Positions 3,308 through 35,262 of a stretch of DNA of 64,000 nucleotides are shown here, one piece after another. The notes under the pieces were generated by a model. It was not told the DNA's origin. It made no database searches and worked only from the letters and a program-made list of their open reading frames with translations. The first letter of the stretch is position 1. The number at the start of each line of letters is the position of its first letter. The translations under genes and the position numbers were made by a program. Source of the stretch: Spirochaetae bacterium HGW-Spirochaetae-3 (lineage in GTDB: Bacteria > Spirochaetota > Spirochaetia > Treponematales > UBA12059); contig PGXV01000005.1 in assembly GCA_002839315.1 (NCBI GenBank), forward strand, positions 222,016 through 286,015, given 5' to 3'.

Positions 3308-4114
3308 ATGATCCATACGGCGCTGTCTTCCTCGGCTTGCATAGGGGCCGATATCCATACCGTACTCGAAACCGCGTCCGCGGCCGGCGTCCACGGCGTC
3401 GAATGGACCGACGACGGGTTCGTCAGCCCCGGCGACGTCTCGGCCGCTCGCGAGACGATGATGGCGACCCTCAGGGCCGGATTATGCACCGTTTCGTACG
3501 CCACTCTGTACAGAGCGGTCTCGCACGACCGCTCGGCGTTCAGGGCGGCGCTCGCCACGACGAGGGAATTCAACGCCCCTATACTGCGCCTGTGGTCGTC
3601 CCATCGCGGCGATTCTCCGGCCGCCGACGCGGCCGCTTTCCTGGACGAGATCAGGTACCTCGGGGACGAGGCGGGCGAGCAAGGGGTAATGCTGTGCCTC
3701 GGCCTTTCGCATCGCTCCATCCTCGACTCGAGCCGAACCGCTACCGGGATCATGGCGGGGATGGACCACCCCTTCGTCAAGCTGATATGGGAACCGGGCT
3801 CCGGAGAGCTATTCGACGACGCGATGGAAGATTTTACGCTGCTATCGGGCCGGATAGGCCTCGTCGTCGCCAGGGGCGAGGACGTCGCTCCCTTCAACGG
3901 CGGCGACGCTTCCTCGGGAGCGCTCGACGGCAGGGCCGAGGCATGGCTCCAGTACCTCGACTCGTTCGACGAGCAGTGCGGCGACCCGGATATGGCCAGG
4001 TACGTCGTAATCAAATCGATCGTCGGGGGTACGAGCCGACTGAGCGATTCCGTCTCGACCATCAAGGCGTGGAGCGCTAAGCTACGCCGCTACCATCGCC
4101 GGAGGGTGATGTGA
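3308..4114 (+). CDS. sugar phosphate isomerase/epimerase-like (xylose isomerase-like TIM barrel) protein
   Basis: 268-aa ORF. General resemblance to the AP-endonuclease-2/xylose-isomerase-like TIM barrel family; no sharp motif, so function is tentative. Confidence 0.55.
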   Translation: MIHTALSSSACIGADIHTVLETASAAGVHGVEWTDDGFVSPGDVSAARETMMATLRAGLCTVSYATLYRAVSHDRSAFRAALATTREFNAPILRLWSSHRGDSPAADAAAFLDEIRYLGDEAGEQGVMLCLGLSHRSILDSSRTATGIMAGMDHPFVKLIWEPGSGELFDDAMEDFTLLSGRIGLVVARGEDVAPFNGGDASSGALDGRAEAWLQYLDSFDEQCGDPDMARYVVIKSIVGGTSRLSDSVSTIKAWSAKLRRYHRRRVM

Positions 4115-10800: not shown

Positions 10801-11907
10801 GTGAAAGGGAGCGACGTAGTTATTGAGCACGTACGCAAGTCGTTCGGCGATTTCAAGGCGCTGGATGACGTGAGCGTTGGAATAAGGAAGGGCGAGTTCT
10901 TCTCGCTCTTGGGCCCATCCGGTTGCGGCAAGACCACCTTGCTGCGGATCATCGCGGGCTTTGAAAGCCCCGAGGGCGGCGCGGTGCTCCTTGACGGCCG
11001 CGACGTTTCGCCTCTGCCGCCCGACGCGCGGCACGTGAATACGGTTTTCCAGAATTACGCGCTGTTCCCGCACCTGTCGGTGTTCGAGAACGTAGCCTTT
11101 TCCCTGCGCCTCAAGAAAGCCCCCGAATCGGAGATAAAGGCCAAGGTGGCCGAGTACCTCCAGCTCGTGGAGCTCCAGGCCCACGCGCACAAGAAGCCTT
11201 CCCAGCTATCCGGCGGGCAGAAGCAGCGCGTCGCGATCGCGAGGGCGCTCATCAACGAGCCCTCGGTCCTTCTTCTCGACGAGCCGCTGTCCGCCCTGGA
11301 CGCGAAGCTCCGCCAGCACATGCTCATCGAGCTCGACTCGATACACGACAAGATAGGCATCACCTTCATCTACGTGACCCACGACCAGCAGGAGGCGCTA
11401 TCCGTCTCCGACCGCATCGCCGTGATGAACGCCGGCGAGGTGCTGCAGATCGGTACGCCCCAGGAGATATACGAGTCGCCGGCTACCGATTTCGTCGCGA
11501 AGTTCATAGGGGAGACCAATCTCTACGAAGCCGACGTCGCGTCGGTGTCGGGCGAGACGGTCGATCTGTCGGTCGACGGCTTCGGGACGGTCAAGGTGAC
11601 CGCGACCGAGCCGCCTCCCGTAGGATCCCGCGTCAGCTGGACGATACGGCCCGAGAAGGTGCGCATCGGGCTTGAGGAGCCGAAGTCCGCGAGGAACGGC
11701 ATTAACGCGATAGCCGGCGTCGTCGACGAGCCTATATACTCCGGATTCCAGAGCAAGTTCTATGTGCGCACGCCGAGCGGCCTCGTGCTCAAGGTCATAA
11801 AGCAGCACGCGGACTGGTCTGACGATGGGCCCGAGATCGCCTGGAAAGACTCGGTCTGGCTGTCGTTCAGCGCCGAGGACGCCTATATCGTCGAGGTTAA
11901 GCGATGA
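10801..11907 (+). CDS. potA: spermidine/putrescine ABC transporter ATPase
   Basis: 368 aa with GTG start. Walker A GPSGCGKTT, signature LSGGQKQR, Walker B LLLDEPLSALD, plus a PotA-type C-terminal regulatory domain. Confidence 0.9.
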   Translation: MKGSDVVIEHVRKSFGDFKALDDVSVGIRKGEFFSLLGPSGCGKTTLLRIIAGFESPEGGAVLLDGRDVSPLPPDARHVNTVFQNYALFPHLSVFENVAFSLRLKKAPESEIKAKVAEYLQLVELQAHAHKKPSQLSGGQKQRVAIARALINEPSVLLLDEPLSALDAKLRQHMLIELDSIHDKIGITFIYVTHDQQEALSVSDRIAVMNAGEVLQIGTPQEIYESPATDFVAKFIGETNLYEADVASVSGETVDLSVDGFGTVKVTATEPPPVGSRVSWTIRPEKVRIGLEEPKSARNGINAIAGVVDEPIYSGFQSKFYVRTPSGLVLKVIKQHADWSDDGPEIAWKDSVWLSFSAEDAYIVEVKR

Positions 11908-12815
11908 AGCGCGTTCCCGGAAGCTCCGGGGCGCAAGGCGGCCTGTACGCCGCCCCGTCCATCTTCTGGCTTTCCGTCTTCTTCCTCGCGCCGCTCGCGA
12001 TCATCGTCGCGTACAGTTTCCTCACGCCCGGAGCCCGTGGCGGCGTCGAGTGGACGCCTACCCTGGACGCGTATAGGGCCATAGCCAATCCGACCTTCGC
12101 CAAGGTGACGCTCAATACGATACTCGTCGCGATCGGCGCTACCGCCATAACCCTGCTCATCGCCGTTCCGTGCGGCTACTACATGGCGAGGAGCGAGCGC
12201 CAGACCCTGCTCCTGATGCTCATCATGATTCCCTTCTGGACCAATTTTCTTATACGCATCTACGCGTGGATAGCGATCCTCGGCAACGAGGGTTTCCTCA
12301 ACGACATCCTCCTGGCTACGGGGCTCGCCAAGCAGAGCGTGCGCTTCCTCTACAACCGGGGCGCGGTGATGCTCGTACTCGTGTACACGTACCTGCCGTA
12401 CGCGATCCTGCCCCTGTACTCGACGATAGACAAGTTCGACTTCTCGCTGCTCGAGGCCGCCCGCGACCTCGGCGCGTCCAAGCTCGGCGCCATCAACAAG
12501 GTGCTGCTGCCCAACATCAAGGGCGGCATCCTGACGGCCTTCCTGTTCACCTTCATACCGATATTCGGCGCGTACGCCGTGCCGCTGCTCGTCGGCGGTA
12601 CCGAGTCGTACATGCTGGGCAACCTGATAGCCGACGAGCTGACGAAGAGCCGCGACTGGCCGCTCGCGTCGGCGATATCCCTCGTCATCACGCTCGTCAC
12701 GACGATCGGCGTCCTTCTCCTCTTGCGCGCCAACGGCAATGCGGTGCTCGGCGGATCAGGCGACGGGGAGCCGGCCGTATCGGAGCCCGCGGCGGCTATC
12801 GGAGGATCCCGATGA
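11904..12815 (+). CDS. potB: spermidine/putrescine ABC transporter permease
   Basis: 303 aa, multi-TM. EAA-type loop LEAARDLGASK. Start overlaps the potA stop. Confidence 0.85.
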   Translation: MKRVPGSSGAQGGLYAAPSIFWLSVFFLAPLAIIVAYSFLTPGARGGVEWTPTLDAYRAIANPTFAKVTLNTILVAIGATAITLLIAVPCGYYMARSERQTLLLMLIMIPFWTNFLIRIYAWIAILGNEGFLNDILLATGLAKQSVRFLYNRGAVMLVLVYTYLPYAILPLYSTIDKFDFSLLEAARDLGASKLGAINKVLLPNIKGGILTAFLFTFIPIFGAYAVPLLVGGTESYMLGNLIADELTKSRDWPLASAISLVITLVTTIGVLLLLRANGNAVLGGSGDGEPAVSEPAAAIGGSR

Positions 12816-17547: not shown

Positions 17548-17791
17548 GATATATCAGATGGTATACAGTGATGTTTACTGACTATCGTCACCGCCGTCGG
17601 CGGGCAGGCGTTACGTTCGCTCGCCCATCAGGGCGCCTCGGCGAAACGCCGCCGATCTTTTAAAGGACCATACTTCGAGTTCCGCCGTCCTACAGCGACG
17701 CGCCCGATGGAGGGCGCCCGCCATGGCGCGGAACCGATGGGCCGAGCCCCAAAGGGCCCGACCTCCCGCTATTTTTGGAAAGGAGTATGGC

Positions 17792-19432
17792 ATGTACGAT
17801 TCTCTTATATACGGGCAAGAACCCGTTCCGGCGTTGCCGGCTAACGAACCCGTCCGTTCCTACGCGCCCGGATCCCCCGAGCGCGCGGCTATCGACGCCG
17901 AGCTACGCTCGATGGCCGCCGATCCCATCGAGATTCCCCTCGTCATAGGCGGCGAGGAGATCCGGACCGGGCGCCTCAAGGAGATACGGGCGCCGCACGA
18001 CCACTCGCTCGTGCTCGGGCGCTACCACGAGGCGGGCGAGGCCGAGGCCGTCATGGCCGCCGAAGCCGCCGCCGTCGCGTACCGGGGGTGGTCGGAGACG
18101 CCGTTCCAGGAACGCGCCGCCGTGTTCCGAAAGGCCGCCGACCTGATCTCGTCGGGATGGTGGAAGACGCTGAACGCCGCCACGATGCTCGGACAATCCA
18201 AGAACGCGTACCAGGCGGAGATAGACGCGACGTGCGAGACCGCTGATTTCTTCCGTATCAATCCCGCTCTCGCCGAGCGTCTCTATGCCGAACAGCCGCG
18301 TTCGGGGGCCGGAGAGCGGAACCTGACGGATTACAGGCCGCTCGACGGCTTCGTATACGCCGTGACGCCGTTCAACTTCACCGCGATCGCGGCGAACCTG
18401 CCATCGGCGCCGGCCCTGATGGGCAACGTCGTCGTGTGGAAGCCCGCGTCGACGTCGGTCCTGTCCAACTGGCACCTGATGCGGCTGTACAAGGCCGCCG
18501 GACTGCCTGACGGCGTCATTAACTTCCTCCCCGGCTCCGCGAAGTCCATAAGCGCGGGCGTCCTGTCGAGGCCGGACCTCGCGGGGCTGCACTTCACCGG
18601 TTCTACCGCGGTATTCAATAGCCTCTGGAAGAGCGTCGCCGATAATCTGTCGACGTACCGATCCTATCCGCGCCTGATCGGCGAGACCGGCGGCAAGGAC
18701 TTCGTCTTCGTTCATCCCGACGCCGACATGGACGCGGCAATCGCCGCCTGCGTCCGGGGGGCCTTCGAGTACCAGGGCCAAAAATGCTCCGCGGCGTCAC
18801 GGCTATACCTGCCGCGTTCCTCGGCCGCGCGCTTCTTGGAGAGGCTCTCGGAGGAAATATCGAGCATCAGCGTGGGCGCGCCCTCTGATCACGGAAATTT
18901 CGTTAACGCGGTGATCGACGAGGCCGCGTTCGATACCATCGTCGGCTATATAGAGCGGGCCCGGGCGAACCCGTCGTGCAGGATCGTCGCGGGCGGCGGC
19001 TACGATAAGTCCAAGGGGTTCTTCATCTCCCCGACGCTGATCGTCAGCGACGATCCCCGTTCCGAGCCGATGGCTAGCGAGATCTTCGGGCCGGTGCTCA
19101 CCGCGTACGCCTACGACGACTCCGATATGCCCGCCGCGTACGCGTTGGTCGACGAGACGACCCCGTACGCCCTGACCGGCGCTATCTTCGCGAGCGATAG
19201 GTCGACGATCATCGAGGCGACGGGCGCCCTCAGGCACGCCGCGGGGAATTTCTATATTAACGACAAGCCTACGGGAGCGGTCGTCGGCAGGCAGCCGTTC
19301 GGCGGAGCGCGCGGATCGGGTACGAACGACAAGGCGGGGTCGTTCCTCAACCTCGTGCGCTGGACCAGCTCGAGGACGATCAAGGAGACCTTCGCGCCGC
19401 CGACCGATTGGCGTTATCCGTTCATGGGCTAG
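17792..19432 (+). CDS. pruA: L-glutamate gamma-semialdehyde (1-pyrroline-5-carboxylate) dehydrogenase
   Basis: ORF 17723..19432 trimmed to the ATG at 17792 (AAGGAG RBS; 546 aa). Aldehyde dehydrogenase motifs GETGGKD and catalytic YQGQKCSA. N-terminus typical of stand-alone P5CDH. Confidence 0.85.
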   Translation: MYDSLIYGQEPVPALPANEPVRSYAPGSPERAAIDAELRSMAADPIEIPLVIGGEEIRTGRLKEIRAPHDHSLVLGRYHEAGEAEAVMAAEAAAVAYRGWSETPFQERAAVFRKAADLISSGWWKTLNAATMLGQSKNAYQAEIDATCETADFFRINPALAERLYAEQPRSGAGERNLTDYRPLDGFVYAVTPFNFTAIAANLPSAPALMGNVVVWKPASTSVLSNWHLMRLYKAAGLPDGVINFLPGSAKSISAGVLSRPDLAGLHFTGSTAVFNSLWKSVADNLSTYRSYPRLIGETGGKDFVFVHPDADMDAAIAACVRGAFEYQGQKCSAASRLYLPRSSAARFLERLSEEISSISVGAPSDHGNFVNAVIDEAAFDTIVGYIERARANPSCRIVAGGGYDKSKGFFISPTLIVSDDPRSEPMASEIFGPVLTAYAYDDSDMPAAYALVDETTPYALTGAIFASDRSTIIEATGALRHAAGNFYINDKPTGAVVGRQPFGGARGSGTNDKAGSFLNLVRWTSSRTIKETFAPPTDWRYPFMG

Positions 19433-24246: not shown

Positions 24247-24319
24247 GCCGAGATAGCTCACTTGGCAGAGCGGCGCACTCGTAATGCGCAGGTACCGAGT
24301 TCGATTCTCGGTCTCGGCT
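24247..24319 (+). tRNA. tRNA-Thr (anticodon CGT)
   Basis: 73-nt cloverleaf read by hand. Acceptor GCCGAGA/TCTCGGC, D arm GCTC..GAGC, anticodon stem GCGCA/TGCGC with loop CTCGTAA, T arm CCGAG-TTCGATT-CTCGG. CCA not encoded. Confidence 0.93.
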
Positions 24320-29265: not shown

Positions 29266-29471
29266 GCGACGCGAGTACGTTTCTTTCAATCAACCGCGCT
29301 TTCCGCGCTAAACCGATGCTTAAGCGAAGCACCCGCGAAGAACGTGGATGTCGCGTAAGGCTTTGGGCCTGTGGGAGCGGGCTCGCGACCCAACTAACAG
29401 AACGACGTAACTCGAGGACCGCGCCGGATTGGCGCGCGGACCATACCCTGTGCGAAGGTAGAGGCAAGAGC

Positions 29472-31562
29472 ATGGCTTTCGAAATTTCGAAGATGCGCAA
29501 TATCGGTATCAGCGCCCACATCGACTCCGGCAAGACGACGCTGTCTGAACGTATCCTGTTCTATTGCAACAAGATACACTCGATCCACGAAGTCCGCGGC
29601 AAGGACGGCGTCGGCGCGACGATGGACTCGATGGAGCTGGAGCGCGAGCGCGGCATCACCATCGCGTCGGCCGCGACGAACGTCACCTGGAAGGACACGA
29701 CGGTCAACCTGATCGATACGCCCGGGCACGTCGACTTCACCATCGAGGTCGAGCGCTCGTTACGCGTGCTCGACGGCGCGGTGCTCGTGCTGTGCTCGGT
29801 CGGAGGCGTGCAGTCCCAGACGCTGACCGTCGACCGCCAGCTCAAGCGTTATCACGTGCCCCGCCTCGCGTTCATCAACAAGGCCGACCGCACGGGAGCC
29901 AATCCGTACCGCGTCAAGAACCAGATAGTCGAGAAGCTCGGCCTCAACGCCGCGTTCATAACCCTGCCGATCGGCCTCGAGGACAAGCTCGAGGGGCTCG
30001 TCGATCTCGTGCTGATGAAGGCCGTCTACTTCGACGGCGAGGGCGGCATCGACATACGCTACGCCGAGATCCCCGCGCACCTGCAGGCCGACGCGGCCAA
30101 GTACCGCGAGGAGCTGCTCGACTGCGCGGCCATGTTCTCCGACGAGCTGGCCGAGGCTTACCTGGAAGGCACCGAGACGCCCGAGATGATCAAGGCCGCC
30201 ATCCGCAAGGGTACCATCGCCCAGCAGTTCGTACCGGTATTCGTCGGTTCCGCCTATAAGAACAAGGGCGTCCAGCTGCTGCTCGACGGCGTCGTCGACT
30301 ACCTGCCGGATCCTACCGAGGTGAAGAATATCGCCCTCGACCTGGACAAGGGAGAGGAAGAGCACGTCGTCATCGCCGATCCCAAGCTCCCGACCGTCGC
30401 CCTCGGCTTCAAGCTCGAGGACGGCCAGTACGGCCAGCTGACCTACGTGCGCATCTACCAGGGCGAGATAAAGAAGGGTAGCGAGCTCTTCAATACCCGC
30501 TCCCGCAAGAAGTTCAAGGTCGGCCGTCTCGTGCGCATGCACGCCGCGACGATGGAAGACATCACCGAAGGCGGTCCCGGCGACATCGTCGCGCTGTTCG
30601 GCATCGAATGCGCCTCCGGCGATACGTTCTGCGAACCGTCCGTGAACTTCGCGATGACGTCGATGTTCGTACCCGACACGGTTATTTCGCTGGCCATCGA
30701 GCCGGCCGACAAGAAGAGCGCCGACCAGATGTCCAAGGCGCTCAACCGCTTCACGAAGGAAGACCCGACGTTCCAGACCTACGTCGATCCCGAGAGCAAC
30801 CAGACCATCATCAAGGGCATGGGCGAGCTGCACCTCGAGGTCTACATCGAGCGCATGCGCCGCGAGTACAAGTGCGAGGTGACGACCGGCATGCCGCAGG
30901 TCGCGTACCGCGAGGCCATCAGCCAGCGCGCCGACTTCAACTATACGCACAAGAAGCAGACCGGCGGTTCGGGCCAGTACGGCCGCGTCGCCGGCTACAT
31001 GGAGCCTATCGAGGGCGCCGTCTACGAGTTCGTCAATTCCGTCAAGGGCGGAGCCATCCCGAACGAATATATCCAGTCCTGCGACAAGGGCTTCAAGGAG
31101 GCCTCGAAGAAGGGCTCGCTTATCGGATTCCCCGTGGTGAACATCCGCTGCGTCATAAACGACGGAGCGAGCCACCCCGTCGACTCTTCCGATATCGCGT
31201 TCCAGCTGGCTTCGATAGGCTGTTTCCGCGAGGCATACGAGAAGGCCAAGCCGGTTATACTCGAGCCGATCATGAAGGTGGTCGCCGAGGGACCCGCGGA
31301 GTTTCAGGGCAATATCTACGCGTCCGTCAACCAGAGGCGCGGACTCATCACGGCCAGTACCGAAGAGGCCTCGTTCTGCCGCGTGGAGGCCGAGGTCCCG
31401 CTGTCCGAGATGTTCGGCTACTCGACGGTGCTGCGTTCGATGACCCAGGGCAAGGCCGAGTTCTCGATGGAATTCCTCAAGTACGGCAAGGTGCCGACGA
31501 GCGTATCCGAGCAGCTCCGCAAGGAGTTCGAGGAGAAGCGTCGCAAGGAACAGGGCCGCTAG
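29472..31562 (+). CDS. fusA: elongation factor G (stand-alone paralog, EF-G2-like context)
   Basis: ORF 29316..31562 trimmed to the ATG at 29472 (696 aa). G1 [10 protein letters not shown]3 DTPGHVDF, G4 NKADR, and full five-domain EF-G-like sequence. No rpsL/rpsG/tuf neighbours. Confidence 0.9.
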
Positions 31563-31726: not shown

Positions 31727-32431
31727 ATGCTTAAAGAGGAGCTGATCAAGAAGAGTCCCGTTCGCGTCCTCGAGCGGGGTATCGAGGGCGGGCTCAAGGG
31801 CGGCAATATCGGCGTCATCGCTAGCCGGAAGGGAATCGGTAAGACGAGCGTGCTCGTCCAGCTGGCATTGGACAAGCTGATGCAGGGCAAGAAGGTCATT
31901 CACGTCTCGTTCACCACGCATACGAGCTACGTCATATCGTGGTACGAGAACATCTTTACGGAGCTCGCCAAGAAGAAGAACCTCGAGGATTACTCGAGCG
32001 TGCACGACGACCTTATGAAGAACCGCGTGATCATGAACTTCAACCAGGAAGGCGTGAGCACGGACCAGATACTCAAGTCCCTACGCGCGATGATCGTCGA
32101 CGGCGGATTCGACGCCGACGCGGTGATAGCCGACGGGTTCGACTTCGCGAGGGCCGACGCCGAGCACTTCGACAAGGTCAGCGCCTTCGCCAAGGAGATG
32201 AAGCTCGAGTTCTGGTATTCGTGCACGATGTCCGGCGAGGAGCCACTGCTCGACAAGAAGAACGTGCCCGTCATCCTGCGGCCGTTCCTCGACGATATCG
32301 CGGTCCTGATCGTGCTCGAGCCCAAGGCGGAGTACATACACTTCATCGTGGTCAAGGACCACGGGCGCATGAACCCCGAGGACCTGAACATCAAGCTGGA
32401 CGCGAAGACTCTCCTTATCGCCGAAGCCTAG
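31727..32431 (+). CDS. orphan KaiC/DnaB/RecA-superfamily ATPase-like protein
   Basis: 234 aa, AAGGAG RBS. DnaB/KaiC-style P-loop VIASRKGIGKTSV, and a Walker-B-like hydrophobic strand ending in Asp (DAVIADGFDF). GC visibly lower than its neighbours (55% in the first 60 nt). Confidence 0.55.
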   Translation: MLKEELIKKSPVRVLERGIEGGLKGGNIGVIASRKGIGKTSVLVQLALDKLMQGKKVIHVSFTTHTSYVISWYENIFTELAKKKNLEDYSSVHDDLMKNRVIMNFNQEGVSTDQILKSLRAMIVDGGFDADAVIADGFDFARADAEHFDKVSAFAKEMKLEFWYSCTMSGEEPLLDKKNVPVILRPFLDDIAVLIVLEPKAEYIHFIVVKDHGRMNPEDLNIKLDAKTLLIAEA

Positions 32432-32432
32432 T

Positions 32433-32554
32433 TTTCGCATATAGCGAGGCGTCTACTTCGTCGCGCCCCATTCCGTACCCCTCGACGTGCAATAGCACGC
32501 CGTCGAGGCCCGGAATGGGGCGCTTCTCGTATACATCCTCGCTATGCGCGAAAA
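32433..32554. repeat. long imperfect hairpin unit U1 (~122 nt)
   Basis: Nested stems. TTTTCGCATATAGCGAGG/CCTCGCTATGCGCGAAAA (imperfect). CCCCATTCCG/CGGAATGGGG (10 bp, perfect). CCTCGACG/CGTCGAGG (8 bp). Apex TGC-AATA-GCA. Confidence 0.8.
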
Positions 32555-32564
32555 CCCGTGTTGG

Positions 32565-32690
32565 GGAGGACATACCGAAGCGATCGCTTCGTCTCTCGGC
32601 CCCCCCGTGCCCCTCGACGTGCGATAGCACGCCGTCGTGGCCCGGGGGGCTTCGTTTCTCGCGCTCATCCCCGGTATGATCGAAAGCGCT
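32565..32690. repeat. long imperfect hairpin unit U2, a tandem copy of U1 offset by 132 bp
   Basis: The 37-nt apex block is 34/37 identical to U1. The middle stem is replaced by GCCCCCCCG/CGGGGGGC (compensatory). The outer stem includes CATACCG/CGGTATG. Confidence 0.75.
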
Positions 32691-32695
32691 TGTCT

Positions 32696-32750
32696 GGGGA
32701 GTAATCTGTGATCAGTGGAAGATACGCTATCTTGATAACAGATCACTTCT
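32696..32750. repeat. dispersed palindromic repeat, copy upstream of vapB
   Basis: TAATCTG-TGATCAG-TGGAAGATACGCTATCTTGATAACAGATCAC. Hairpin GTGATC..AAGATA-CGC-TATCTT..GAT(A)AC. Confidence 0.8.
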
Positions 32751-33009: not shown

Positions 33010-33380
33010 ACGTCGTCGATTCCTCGTGCTGGCTGGAGTTCTTCTCGGGGAGCGCGGTCGGGGAAACGATCTCACCCTTCATCGAAGACATCGAGGGGCT
33101 ACTCGTTCCTTCTATAACGTTATACGAGGTGTTCAAGAAAATCCTCCAGGAGCTGGACGAGGACAAGGCTCTCTTCGCCGTCGCTCATATGAAGCAAGGA
33201 AGGGTCGTCGAGCTGGACGCCGATCTCGCGATATACGCGGCCAAGGTCGGCAAGGAATACCGGCTGGCGATGGCCGACAGCATCATCTACGCCGTAGCGC
33301 GAAAATTCGGCGCGACGCTGTGGACGCAGGACAAGCACTTCAAGGATCTGCCGAACGTGCGATATTTTAAGAAAGAGTAA
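33006..33380 (+). CDS. vapC: PIN-domain ribonuclease toxin
   Basis: 124 aa. N-terminal VVDSS acidic residue, the central acidic/Thr region, and C-terminal TQDKHF are typical of VapC PIN toxins. 4-nt overlap with vapB. Confidence 0.85.
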   Translation: MNVVDSSCWLEFFSGSAVGETISPFIEDIEGLLVPSITLYEVFKKILQELDEDKALFAVAHMKQGRVVELDADLAIYAAKVGKEYRLAMADSIIYAVARKFGATLWTQDKHFKDLPNVRYFKKE

Positions 33381-33426
33381 TCAGTAATCTGTGATCAGTG
33401 GAAGACACGCTATCTTGATCACGGAT
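33377..33426. repeat. dispersed palindromic repeat, copy immediately downstream of vapC
   Basis: TAATCAG-TAATCTG-TGATCAG-TGGAAGACACGCTATCTTGATCAC. 38/40 identical to the copy at 32700-32739. The first TAA is the vapC stop. Confidence 0.85.
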
Positions 33427-33428
33427 AC

Positions 33429-33481
33429 GTGTGAGTTATGTGTGTGAGTGTAGGATAGCGTGTCCTCACTCACACTCACAC
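33429..33481. repeat. second hairpin with the inverted core (TAGCGTG) and unrelated GTGTGAG-type arms
   Basis: GTGTGAGTTATGTGTGTGAGTGTAGGA-TAGCGTG-TCCTCACTCACACTCACAC. The apex is the reverse complement of the CACGCTA apex of the adjacent copy. Confidence 0.8.
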
Positions 33482-33491
33482 TTCTCCCCCG

Positions 33492-35205: not shown

Positions 35206-35262
35206 AGAAGTAATCAGTAATCAGTAATCAGTGGAGGATACGCTATCTTGATCACAGATCGC
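35206..35262. repeat. dispersed palindromic repeat between pepF and pgl
   Basis: (TAATCAG)x3-TGGAGGATACGCTATCTTGATCACAGATC. The right arm contains the pgl stop codon (complement of 35252-35254). Confidence 0.85.

Follow-up and report, generated by a model that had tools for sequence, protein, structure and literature searches.

Tandem bulged hairpins at the stop codon of a KaiC-like ATPase gene are conserved within one clade of uncultured spirochaetes

We analyzed 64 kb of contig PGXV01000005.1 of Spirochaetae bacterium HGW-Spirochaetae-3 (hereafter the window, meaning the whole stretch), in which two tandem hairpins start at the stop codon of a gene encoding a KaiC-like ATPase. Orthologous hairpin arrays occupy the same site in related spirochaetes, their pairing is maintained while the sequence of one stem is replaced, and they match no Rfam family. 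The explanation that we prefer, and to which we would give an even chance, is that the array is a retained foldback repeat of mobile origin, which would have been inserted once, tandemly amplified and then kept under constraint, probably for the 3' end of the ATPase mRNA.

A repeat search placed the two units at 32431-32570 and 32562-32699, with a direct-repeat spacing of 132 nt. Both units form hairpins of three tiers, and their bulged apices are nearly identical. The 36-nt apex core, located at 32478-32513 and 32610-32645, differs at two positions between the units and has no other copy in the window; a second copy did not arise in any of 100 shuffles. The original prediction, made from the letters of this DNA, had described two tandem hairpins with an offset of 132 bp and a near-identical apex, and all its sequence statements hold (stems I1, I3 and I2/I7). 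The array is slightly longer than given there, as it starts at 32431 and ends at about 32699. The stop codon TAG of the ATPase gene is located at 32429-32431, and the hairpin begins with the G of this codon. Six further independent assemblies of this strain contain the array without a single base difference, which excludes an assembly artefact. Folding of either strand was far better than that of shuffled sequences (z = -6.9 for the plus strand and -9.0 for the minus strand). The parts of the array and the features on either side of it are as follows:

31727-32431 (+): upstream gene, 234-aa divergent RecA-superfamily (KaiC/GvpD/RAD55-like) ATPase, from the list of open reading frames
32431-32555 (+): unit 1 hairpin, from sequence, inverted-repeat search, folding and alignment
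32431-32449 / 32537-32555: unit 1 outer stem (I1), 19 nt, 89% complementary
32450-32462 (+): unit 1 5' loop strand
32463-32475 / 32511-32523: unit 1 middle stem (I3), 13 nt, 100% complementary
32480-32486 / 32502-32508: unit 1 apex lower stem, 7 bp
32487-32490 / 32495-32498: unit 1 apex upper stem, 4 bp
32491-32494: unit 1 apex loop, AATA
32499-32501: unit 1 apex bulge, GCC, 3 nt, on the 3' arm
32524-32536 (+): unit 1 3' loop strand
32556-32570 (+): linker, mini-hairpin CCC-GTGTT-GGG and purine-rich tail
32571-32678 (+): unit 2 hairpin, from sequence, inverted-repeat search (I2, I7), folding and alignment
32571-32577 / 32672-32678: unit 2 outer stem
32578-32598 and 32651-32671 (+): unit 2 pyrimidine-rich loop strands, common 10-mer TCGTYTCTCG
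32599-32607 / 32643-32650: unit 2 middle stem
32612-32618 / 32634-32640: unit 2 apex lower stem, with a conserved T-T mismatch
32619-32622 / 32627-32630: unit 2 apex upper stem
32623-32626: unit 2 apex loop, GATA
32631-32633: unit 2 bulge, GCC
32679-32699 (+): unit 2 tail ATCGAAAGCGCTTGTCTGGGG, homologous to ...CGAAAAC plus the linker end of unit 1
32700-32747 (+): first copy of a separate 46-nt palindromic repeat, R2, outside the hairpin units

Unit 2 follows the plan of unit 1 with a middle stem of different sequence, and its tail has no 5' partner within the unit. The large internal loop has two pyrimidine-rich strands that repeat each other in the same direction (TCGTYTCTCG in type B units). 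These direct repeats and the bulge on one side only make the unit asymmetric, and the asymmetry is conserved. The mini-stem of the linker is compensated among relatives (CCCG/CGGG, CCCT/AGGG, TCTTC/GAAGA and GCT/AGC), as read by eye from an alignment whose register varies between them.

Searches with nhmmer and with a covariance model built from the units (R1) detected spirochaete homologues only directly after the ATPase stop codon, and only in the closest relatives. Thus, the homologue search proposed in the original prediction did recover orthologous arrays, and their pairing is preserved through substitutions; further copies exist at the same locus of relatives and not elsewhere in the 82.6 kb of this genome that were searched. 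The arrays found, in addition to that of the window, are:

L007: 2 units
L010 and L025: 1 unit
L022: about 4.5 units
L023 and L141: 2 units and one with the apex deleted
L024: 1 unit and a fragment
L027: 1 unit and repeated 5' arms
L052: copy cut off at the contig end
L177: 2 units and fragments

The number of units varies by lineage, and units are mosaics of types A and B, some of them chimeric, truncated or mismatched (the second full unit of L177, around 1193-1323, and units 2, 3 and 5 of L022), with the caveat that tandem repeats in the metagenome assemblies of relatives can be mis-assembled. In a neighbour-joining tree of the ATPase gene, the element-bearing lineages form one clade of uncultured Treponematales-like spirochaetes. 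The site is occupied in this clade, the element is missing in all outgroups, and the hairpin starts exactly at the stop codon in every lineage. The element was gained once at the ATPase stop codon, in the ancestor of the clade, and was then retained. At this position, the nearest relatives without the element mostly have short ordinary hairpins, followed by a T-run in L013/L029, L026 and L030/L015. A TAG is present on each side of both units in L007 and 6-11 nt past the right arm in L023, L024 and L010, and is absent in the window.

The original prediction regarded the toxin-antitoxin (TA) cassette downstream of the array, a type II MazE/AbrB and PIN pair, as part of the context of the hairpins. 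This did not hold: the cassette is missing from L007, L010, L022, L023, L024 and L027, all of which bear hairpins that follow the ATPase stop codon. Therefore, the element belongs with the 3' end of the ATPase gene and not with the TA module.

We then compared conservation between the regions of the array. Identities were computed on the first units, which are positionally orthologous:

Apex arms: 81-83%
Outer stem: 81-82%
Unpaired loop strands: 77-78%
Middle stem: 51-59%, yet 97% paired
Apex loop: 50%
Linker: 50%

At the 4-fold degenerate sites of the ATPase gene, the window is 47-61% identical to its relatives, and identity among the relatives reaches 87%. Change is slower in the bulged apex and the pyrimidine-rich unpaired strands than at synonymous sites; the middle stem changes about as fast as those sites while being kept paired. 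Therefore, both the structure and some of the sequence are constrained.

Pairing was assessed on 12 units with a hand-defined structure of 41 pairs, using partner-sliding and shuffle controls. Bases were paired in 89.5% of the cells, compared to 35-47% in the slid controls. Changes on both sides of a pair were found in 16 of the 41 pairs, a value that none of 500 shuffles reached (slid controls, 2-6). The original prediction had proposed, from the middle tier of the two units in the window, that pairing rather than sequence is conserved, and the orthologues show this far more strongly. The middle stem reads CCCCATTCCG/CGGAATGGGG in the window, CCCCTCGCCG/CGGCGAGGGG in L007, CCCCGATCCG/CGGATCGGGG in L022 and L023, and GCACGCGG/CCGCGTGC in L027. 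Similarly, the upper stem of the apex changes from GTGC/GCAC to ATAC/GTAT in L024 and L027. Units also differ by indels of 11-13 nt, including an inserted CCCGAAGGG mini-hairpin, and are therefore non-coding.

As stated in the original prediction, the hairpins belong to no named RNA family. Rfam 15 gave nothing at gathering score for the hairpins in searches of the window, L022, L139 and 13 loci with look-alike hairpins (see below), and at E<=10 it gave only noise of the microRNA and snoRNA type (11-20 bits), with no match at the units of the window. The only Rfam matches in the window are a tRNA and a molybdenum cofactor (Moco) riboswitch, both away from the units. The family itself is new; its kind, that of intergenic foldback repeats, is already known. 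An exact pattern with the window's own loop (GACGTGCNATAGCACGCCGTC) had no match in genome or metagenome contigs, in collections that do not include this strain. Plasmids gave no match in a distant blastn search, viral contigs gave one match to the scanned pattern, with a 3-nt loop gap, and a full-text literature search for the apex sequence returned unrelated papers only.

The case for a mobile origin comes from look-alike hairpins outside the spirochaetes. When metagenome contigs were scanned for the apex pattern with the loop left free, 120 loci matched; about 100 of these are chance matches in high-GC coding regions, which served as controls. Two others are further spirochaete arrays (L141 and L177). 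In about 14 more, the 21-nt apex and its bulge lie in non-coding DNA at the centre of hairpin foldbacks of 120-160 nt with C/U-rich flanks. L139 (two copies), L176, L181 and L214 share a 64-nt core at 91% identity, with different arms, and come from Myxococcota according to KorA homology. In L176, the element (1904-2067) lies between korA and korB, two genes whose ATGA/GTGA overlap is seen in L223 and L225 (11839-11842), relatives with KorA identities of 89% and 81%. The filled site reads ATGA/CAGGGTCC...GAGTACCCTG/TGA, with a 3-bp repeat of the stop codon (TGA...TGA) and inverted ends CAGGGT/ACCCTG. The new GTG start codon of korB is made up of the last base of the element and the duplicated TG, and AGAG/GGAG is present just upstream, inside the element. 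A copy in L225, found by covariance model R2 alone (74 bits) and with a covarying apex, follows korB in reversed orientation and is flanked by TAG...TAG; its inverted ends match perfectly over 19 bp, and its insertion site is empty in L223 and L176. Hence, the Myxococcota group behaves as a foldback of the MITE type (miniature inverted-repeat transposable element) that lands on stop codons and is tolerated within an operon in both orientations. Orientation bias was discarded as evidence for an RNA role: of the copies lying between co-directional genes, six of six were co-oriented with these genes at first, and six of seven once the reversed copy of L225 was included, which is not significant.

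In the favoured explanation, the ancestor would have been a MITE-like mobile foldback, which we infer from the Myxococcota insertions at stop codons with inverted ends and 3-bp duplications. A single insertion at the ATPase stop codon would have occurred in the ancestor of the clade, and the repeat could have grown in tandem by unequal recombination between units or by re-insertion beside an existing copy. The array would be transcribed together with the ATPase mRNA and form a hairpin in its 3' untranslated region (3' UTR), of the kind known for ERIC, REP and BOX. There, it might be a docking site or a barrier that affects 3'-end processing and stability; translation termination may also be affected because the stem begins at the stop codon. 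The repeat has probably been exapted. A transposition-related repeat, one of the candidates in the original prediction, thus remains a live candidate, while the IS200/IS605 or REP-like form proposed there is unsupported (see below). With respect to the traits of a MITE, terminal inverted repeats are present, as the arms of unit 1 reach the element ends. Target duplication is clear in L176 (TGA) and L225 (TAG), and is not seen in the window. Presence/absence polymorphism is seen in the Myxococcota look-alikes, while the one site of the spirochaetes reflects a single gain and not repeated mobility.

Several observations weigh against this explanation. We found no second copy in 82.6 kb of this genome (the window and 18.6 kb of the same contig), and no copies at other loci in about 680 kb of related spirochaete loci or in the flanks in 80 related genomes. 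Multiple dispersed copies, another MITE trait, are therefore not seen in the spirochaete DNA scanned; multi-copy status in spirochaetes is unproven, and low copy numbers are possible beyond that DNA. Domain searches of the window revealed no integrase, transposase or reverse transcriptase. Long-term conservation is unexpected of a decaying MITE, and therefore exaptation must be assumed. The wobble pairs of the real stems do not fix a strand (12 G-U on the plus strand versus 7 A-C), and these near-equal counts fit a palindrome maintained in DNA as well as an RNA. Finally, part of the evidence opposes the link to the Myxococcota elements: covariance model R1 gives the L225 copy 11 bits (E = 0.5), the spirochaete units get 21-25 bits from covariance model R2, within the range of the coding controls, and the apex identity was imposed by the search pattern. 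In favour of the link, the flanks of the L027 unit match those of the Myxococcota core better than all 104 control loci, and covariance model R1 scores L139a and L139b at 27-31 bits. On these scores and alignments, the odds that the spirochaete units belong to the same family as the Myxococcota elements appear to be about even. Whether or not they do, the spirochaete units are MITE-like in anatomy, given their inverted ends up to the stop codon and the TAG triplets next to units in L007, L023, L024 and L010.

If the array is a retained foldback repeat, it would be a clean natural example of such a repeat kept long after its insertion, with a middle stem wholly turned over yet paired and with its unpaired parts frozen. 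It would then provide a ready covariation data set and a candidate binding site, formed by the bulged apex and the twin pyrimidine strands, as well as a route to the factor by which such hairpins are read in high-GC bacteria with few classical terminators. For the question of how intergenic repeats are tolerated in genomes, the Myxococcota elements are informative in that they insert exactly at stop codons, even where two genes are translationally coupled. The finding would be ordinary if the array were only a relic repeat.

REP and BIME are likewise intergenic palindromes that are often clustered; they protect upstream mRNA and, close to a stop codon, interfere with translation termination. 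They differ from the units of 125-140 nt described here in being 20-40 nt long, with a 5' GTAG, alternating orientation in BIMEs and a RAYT gene, none of which is present here; the linkers of some relatives contain only an occasional GTAG. BOX modules are much shorter than the spirochaete units. Nevertheless, BOX of Streptococcus pneumoniae resembles the array in being a modular intergenic repeat with tandem modules in variable number and a predicted folded RNA (PMC3184786), although it is highly multi-copy and has no sequence relationship to the array. Many intergenic repeats are located at the 3' ends of genes, are co-transcribed and alter mRNA stability (PMC3184786). In this respect the units are closest to the MITE-type foldbacks ERIC, Correia/CREE, Nezha and Chunjie, which are non-coding elements of 100-200 nt forming an imperfect palindrome over their whole length with inverted ends, are intergenic, are often at gene 3' ends and co-transcribed, and can form RNA hairpins and change the fate of the mRNA (PMC3184786). 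The Myxococcota look-alikes share with them insertion polymorphism, terminal inverted repeats and short target duplications. In contrast to the usual MITE pattern, the centre is conserved here and the ends vary between subfamilies; the duplication of ERIC and Correia is TA, whereas the 3 bp of the look-alikes are a stop codon; and the spirochaete element is known at one locus, where it is conserved above the 4-fold sites of the window.

The array may instead be a structured RNA specific to this locus, without mobile ancestry, that is, a cis-acting 3'-UTR element or a small RNA derived from the 3' UTR of the ATPase gene. It would have undergone local duplication, and a trans-acting protein would read the bulged apex and the twin pyrimidine strands. 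We regard this as unlikely, although a good part of the data would suit it: the single locus in all spirochaete sequence scanned, vertical retention in one clade, the exact start at the stop codon in every lineage, unpaired parts conserved above the 4-fold sites of the window, and stems that covary. In addition, the lower stem of the apex taken alone leans to the plus strand, as one-sided changes result in G-U in seven cells versus A-C in one, and alignment position 95 is A, U or G opposite a fixed U. However, the G-U and A-C counts of the stems as a whole are nearly equal, there is no Rfam relative, and foldbacks that are 91% Watson-Crick and arranged in tandem with truncated and chimeric units would be unusual for a dedicated regulatory RNA. 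Moreover, the identical apex in the insertion-polymorphic elements of Myxococcota would have to be a coincidence. A type III TA RNA (a ToxI-like array) was rejected because the downstream module is of type II and is missing from hairpin-bearing relatives. The defining sequence features of CsrA-type GGA motifs, 6S-like RNA, group II domain V, retrons, K-turns and boxA are absent.

A bolder possibility, which we consider doubtful, is that the module CUCGACGUGC(C)-loop-(G)GCACGCCGUCG with its twin pyrimidine strands is the recognition module of an undescribed class of elements crossing phyla, in which the spirochaete array would represent a functional case, kept and amplified. Such a candidate class may span Spirochaetota, Myxococcota and at least one other high-GC lineage. 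Either a mobilising enzyme would read the centre of the foldback and not its ends, and land on stop codons, or the hairpin would be a domesticated RNA docking site, bound by a conserved dimeric RNA-binding factor in control of the 3' ends of mRNA. With respect to other lineages, five of the scanned loci (L116, L122, L163, L135 and L106), all from one metagenome (Ga0265292), contain at least four differently flanked 150-nt foldbacks with the same apex. They have a CTTCGTCGC motif and a CCC-NNN(N)-GGG mini-hairpin with the loop GAA(G), UUCG or UCCG, and are hosted by a high-GC bacterium that has an archaellin-like gene and a proteasome ATPase of the pup type. An archaeal origin of this second group (L116, L163 and others), suggested by the archaellin-like domain, was rejected, as the proteasome ATPase best fits the bacterial pup type and pepN is of the actinobacterial type. 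The motif CTCGACGTGCAGCGGCACGCCGTCGTC recurs in unrelated high-GC coding regions (L102-L221), where the opposite strand reads DDGVPLHVE; this case illustrates that GC-rich patterns of 21 nt easily find chance or coding matches in large metagenome collections.

It is improbable that the array is purely a selfish or neutral DNA palindrome without a host function or an RNA role, whose arms would be matched by intrastrand repair or conversion, or by conversion from other copies. The nearly exclusive Watson-Crick pairing of the stems, wobble without strand preference, variable copy number and mosaic units would all be explained in this way, and the surrounding few kilobases are repeat-rich and variable in genes. 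However, conversion between arms would erase the one-sided 3-nt bulge and the direct-repeat loop strands, and these asymmetries persist at about 80% identity, compared to 47-61% at the 4-fold sites of the window. In folding, the minus strand was always the more stable one, because the C/U-rich loops lie on the plus strand. We discarded the wobble and strand-energy tests as evidence for a strand, since neither separates a plus-strand RNA from a DNA palindrome.

We give still less weight to a role as a transcription stop, either as an intrinsic terminator with a poor U-tract or as a Rho-loading module like rutA-boxB-rutB. The C/U-rich, G-poor strands beside a very stable hairpin on the mRNA-sense strand would suit such a role, and several relatives without the element have ordinary terminator hairpins with a T-run at the same position. 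There is also a precedent in TRIT (Tuberculosis Rho-independent terminator motif) of mycobacteria, another known kind close to the units: a hairpin conserved in sequence and structure within a narrow window at stop codons, for which its discoverers suggest a factor that reads a double-stranded motif (PMC3152330). TRIT, which we compared by description, differs in being reported from Mycobacterium only, in having 147 dispersed copies, mostly bidirectional, and in overlapping the end of the coding sequence, around -8 (PMC3152330). An intrinsic terminator was rejected, as a terminator scan found no hairpin with a U-tract at the end of either unit and gave only a weak internal site at 32639-32651; moreover, T4 lies before the outer stem and A4 after it, the opposite of a terminator layout. 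In L024, a canonical terminator (CCGGA...TCCGG and T6, about 3945-3975) is located downstream of the unit, and therefore the unit lies inside the 3' UTR in that lineage and not at its end. The look-alikes tolerated in both orientations in the korAB operon also argue against a strong terminator function.

Finally, the single-strand DNA recombination substrates of the original prediction, an integron attC site or an IS200/IS605 or REP/RAYT hairpin, can practically be dismissed. Such a substrate could explain the variable downstream genes. Like attC, a unit consists of a folded single strand in which an outer stem, an unpaired central spacer and an inner stem containing extrahelical bases lead to a variable tip; downstream genes differ by lineage, and TA cassettes, such as the one present here, are a common cargo of attC arrays. 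However, the unit reads 5'-GTTTTCG...CGAAAAC-3', with GTT and AAC on the outside, which on either strand is the reverse of the RYYYAAC...GTTRRRY of attC; R boxes are thus absent or reversed. Conservation is at the apex and not at the outer boxes, opposite to the attC pattern, and there is no cassette array. The GTAG and short-hairpin architecture of IS200/IS605 or REP elements is lacking, and the search for IntI, Y1 or HUH genes found none within the 64 kb. The TA cassette is bracketed by two copies of palindromic repeat R2 and not by the units.

Palindromic repeat R2 (core GTGATCAGTGGAAGATACGCTATCTTGAT) is present three times within 2.6 kb, at 32700-32747, 33383-33426 and 35216-35260, always on the plus strand, and also in L007 at about 14207. 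The inverted repeat at 32700-32747 is one of these copies, and its interpretation as (only) a TA operator was therefore rejected. The TA module may have arrived or left between copies of palindromic repeat R2. A GT-rich palindrome, GTGTGTGAGTGT...ACACTCACAC (window 33427-33482), accompanies the repeat, and in L007 a 1.4-kb segment in place of the TA cassette lies between two copies of this palindrome (11015-11068 and 12400-12470); the alignment between the window and L007 resumes only from window position 33303.

Upstream of the array, the ATPase protein has only sub-threshold Pfam matches, to KaiC, DnaB_C and AAA_25, and escapes the thresholds of both Pfam and NCBIfam. It has 1954 homologues, labelled Spirochaetota or KaiC-family by their sources, and its gene is always preceded by that of an EF-G paralogue (window 29316-31562). 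With about 1950 homologues and conserved synteny, the ATPase is not the orphan that it had been called. The EF-G paralogue and the 234-aa ATPase form a conserved gene pair in many metagenome-assembled genomes of Spirochaetota (L001-L101). Elsewhere in the window, the Moco riboswitch (44 bits) is located upstream of a gene of the aldehyde dehydrogenase family, and this riboswitch and the tRNA gene lie at 17661-17800 and 24247-24319.

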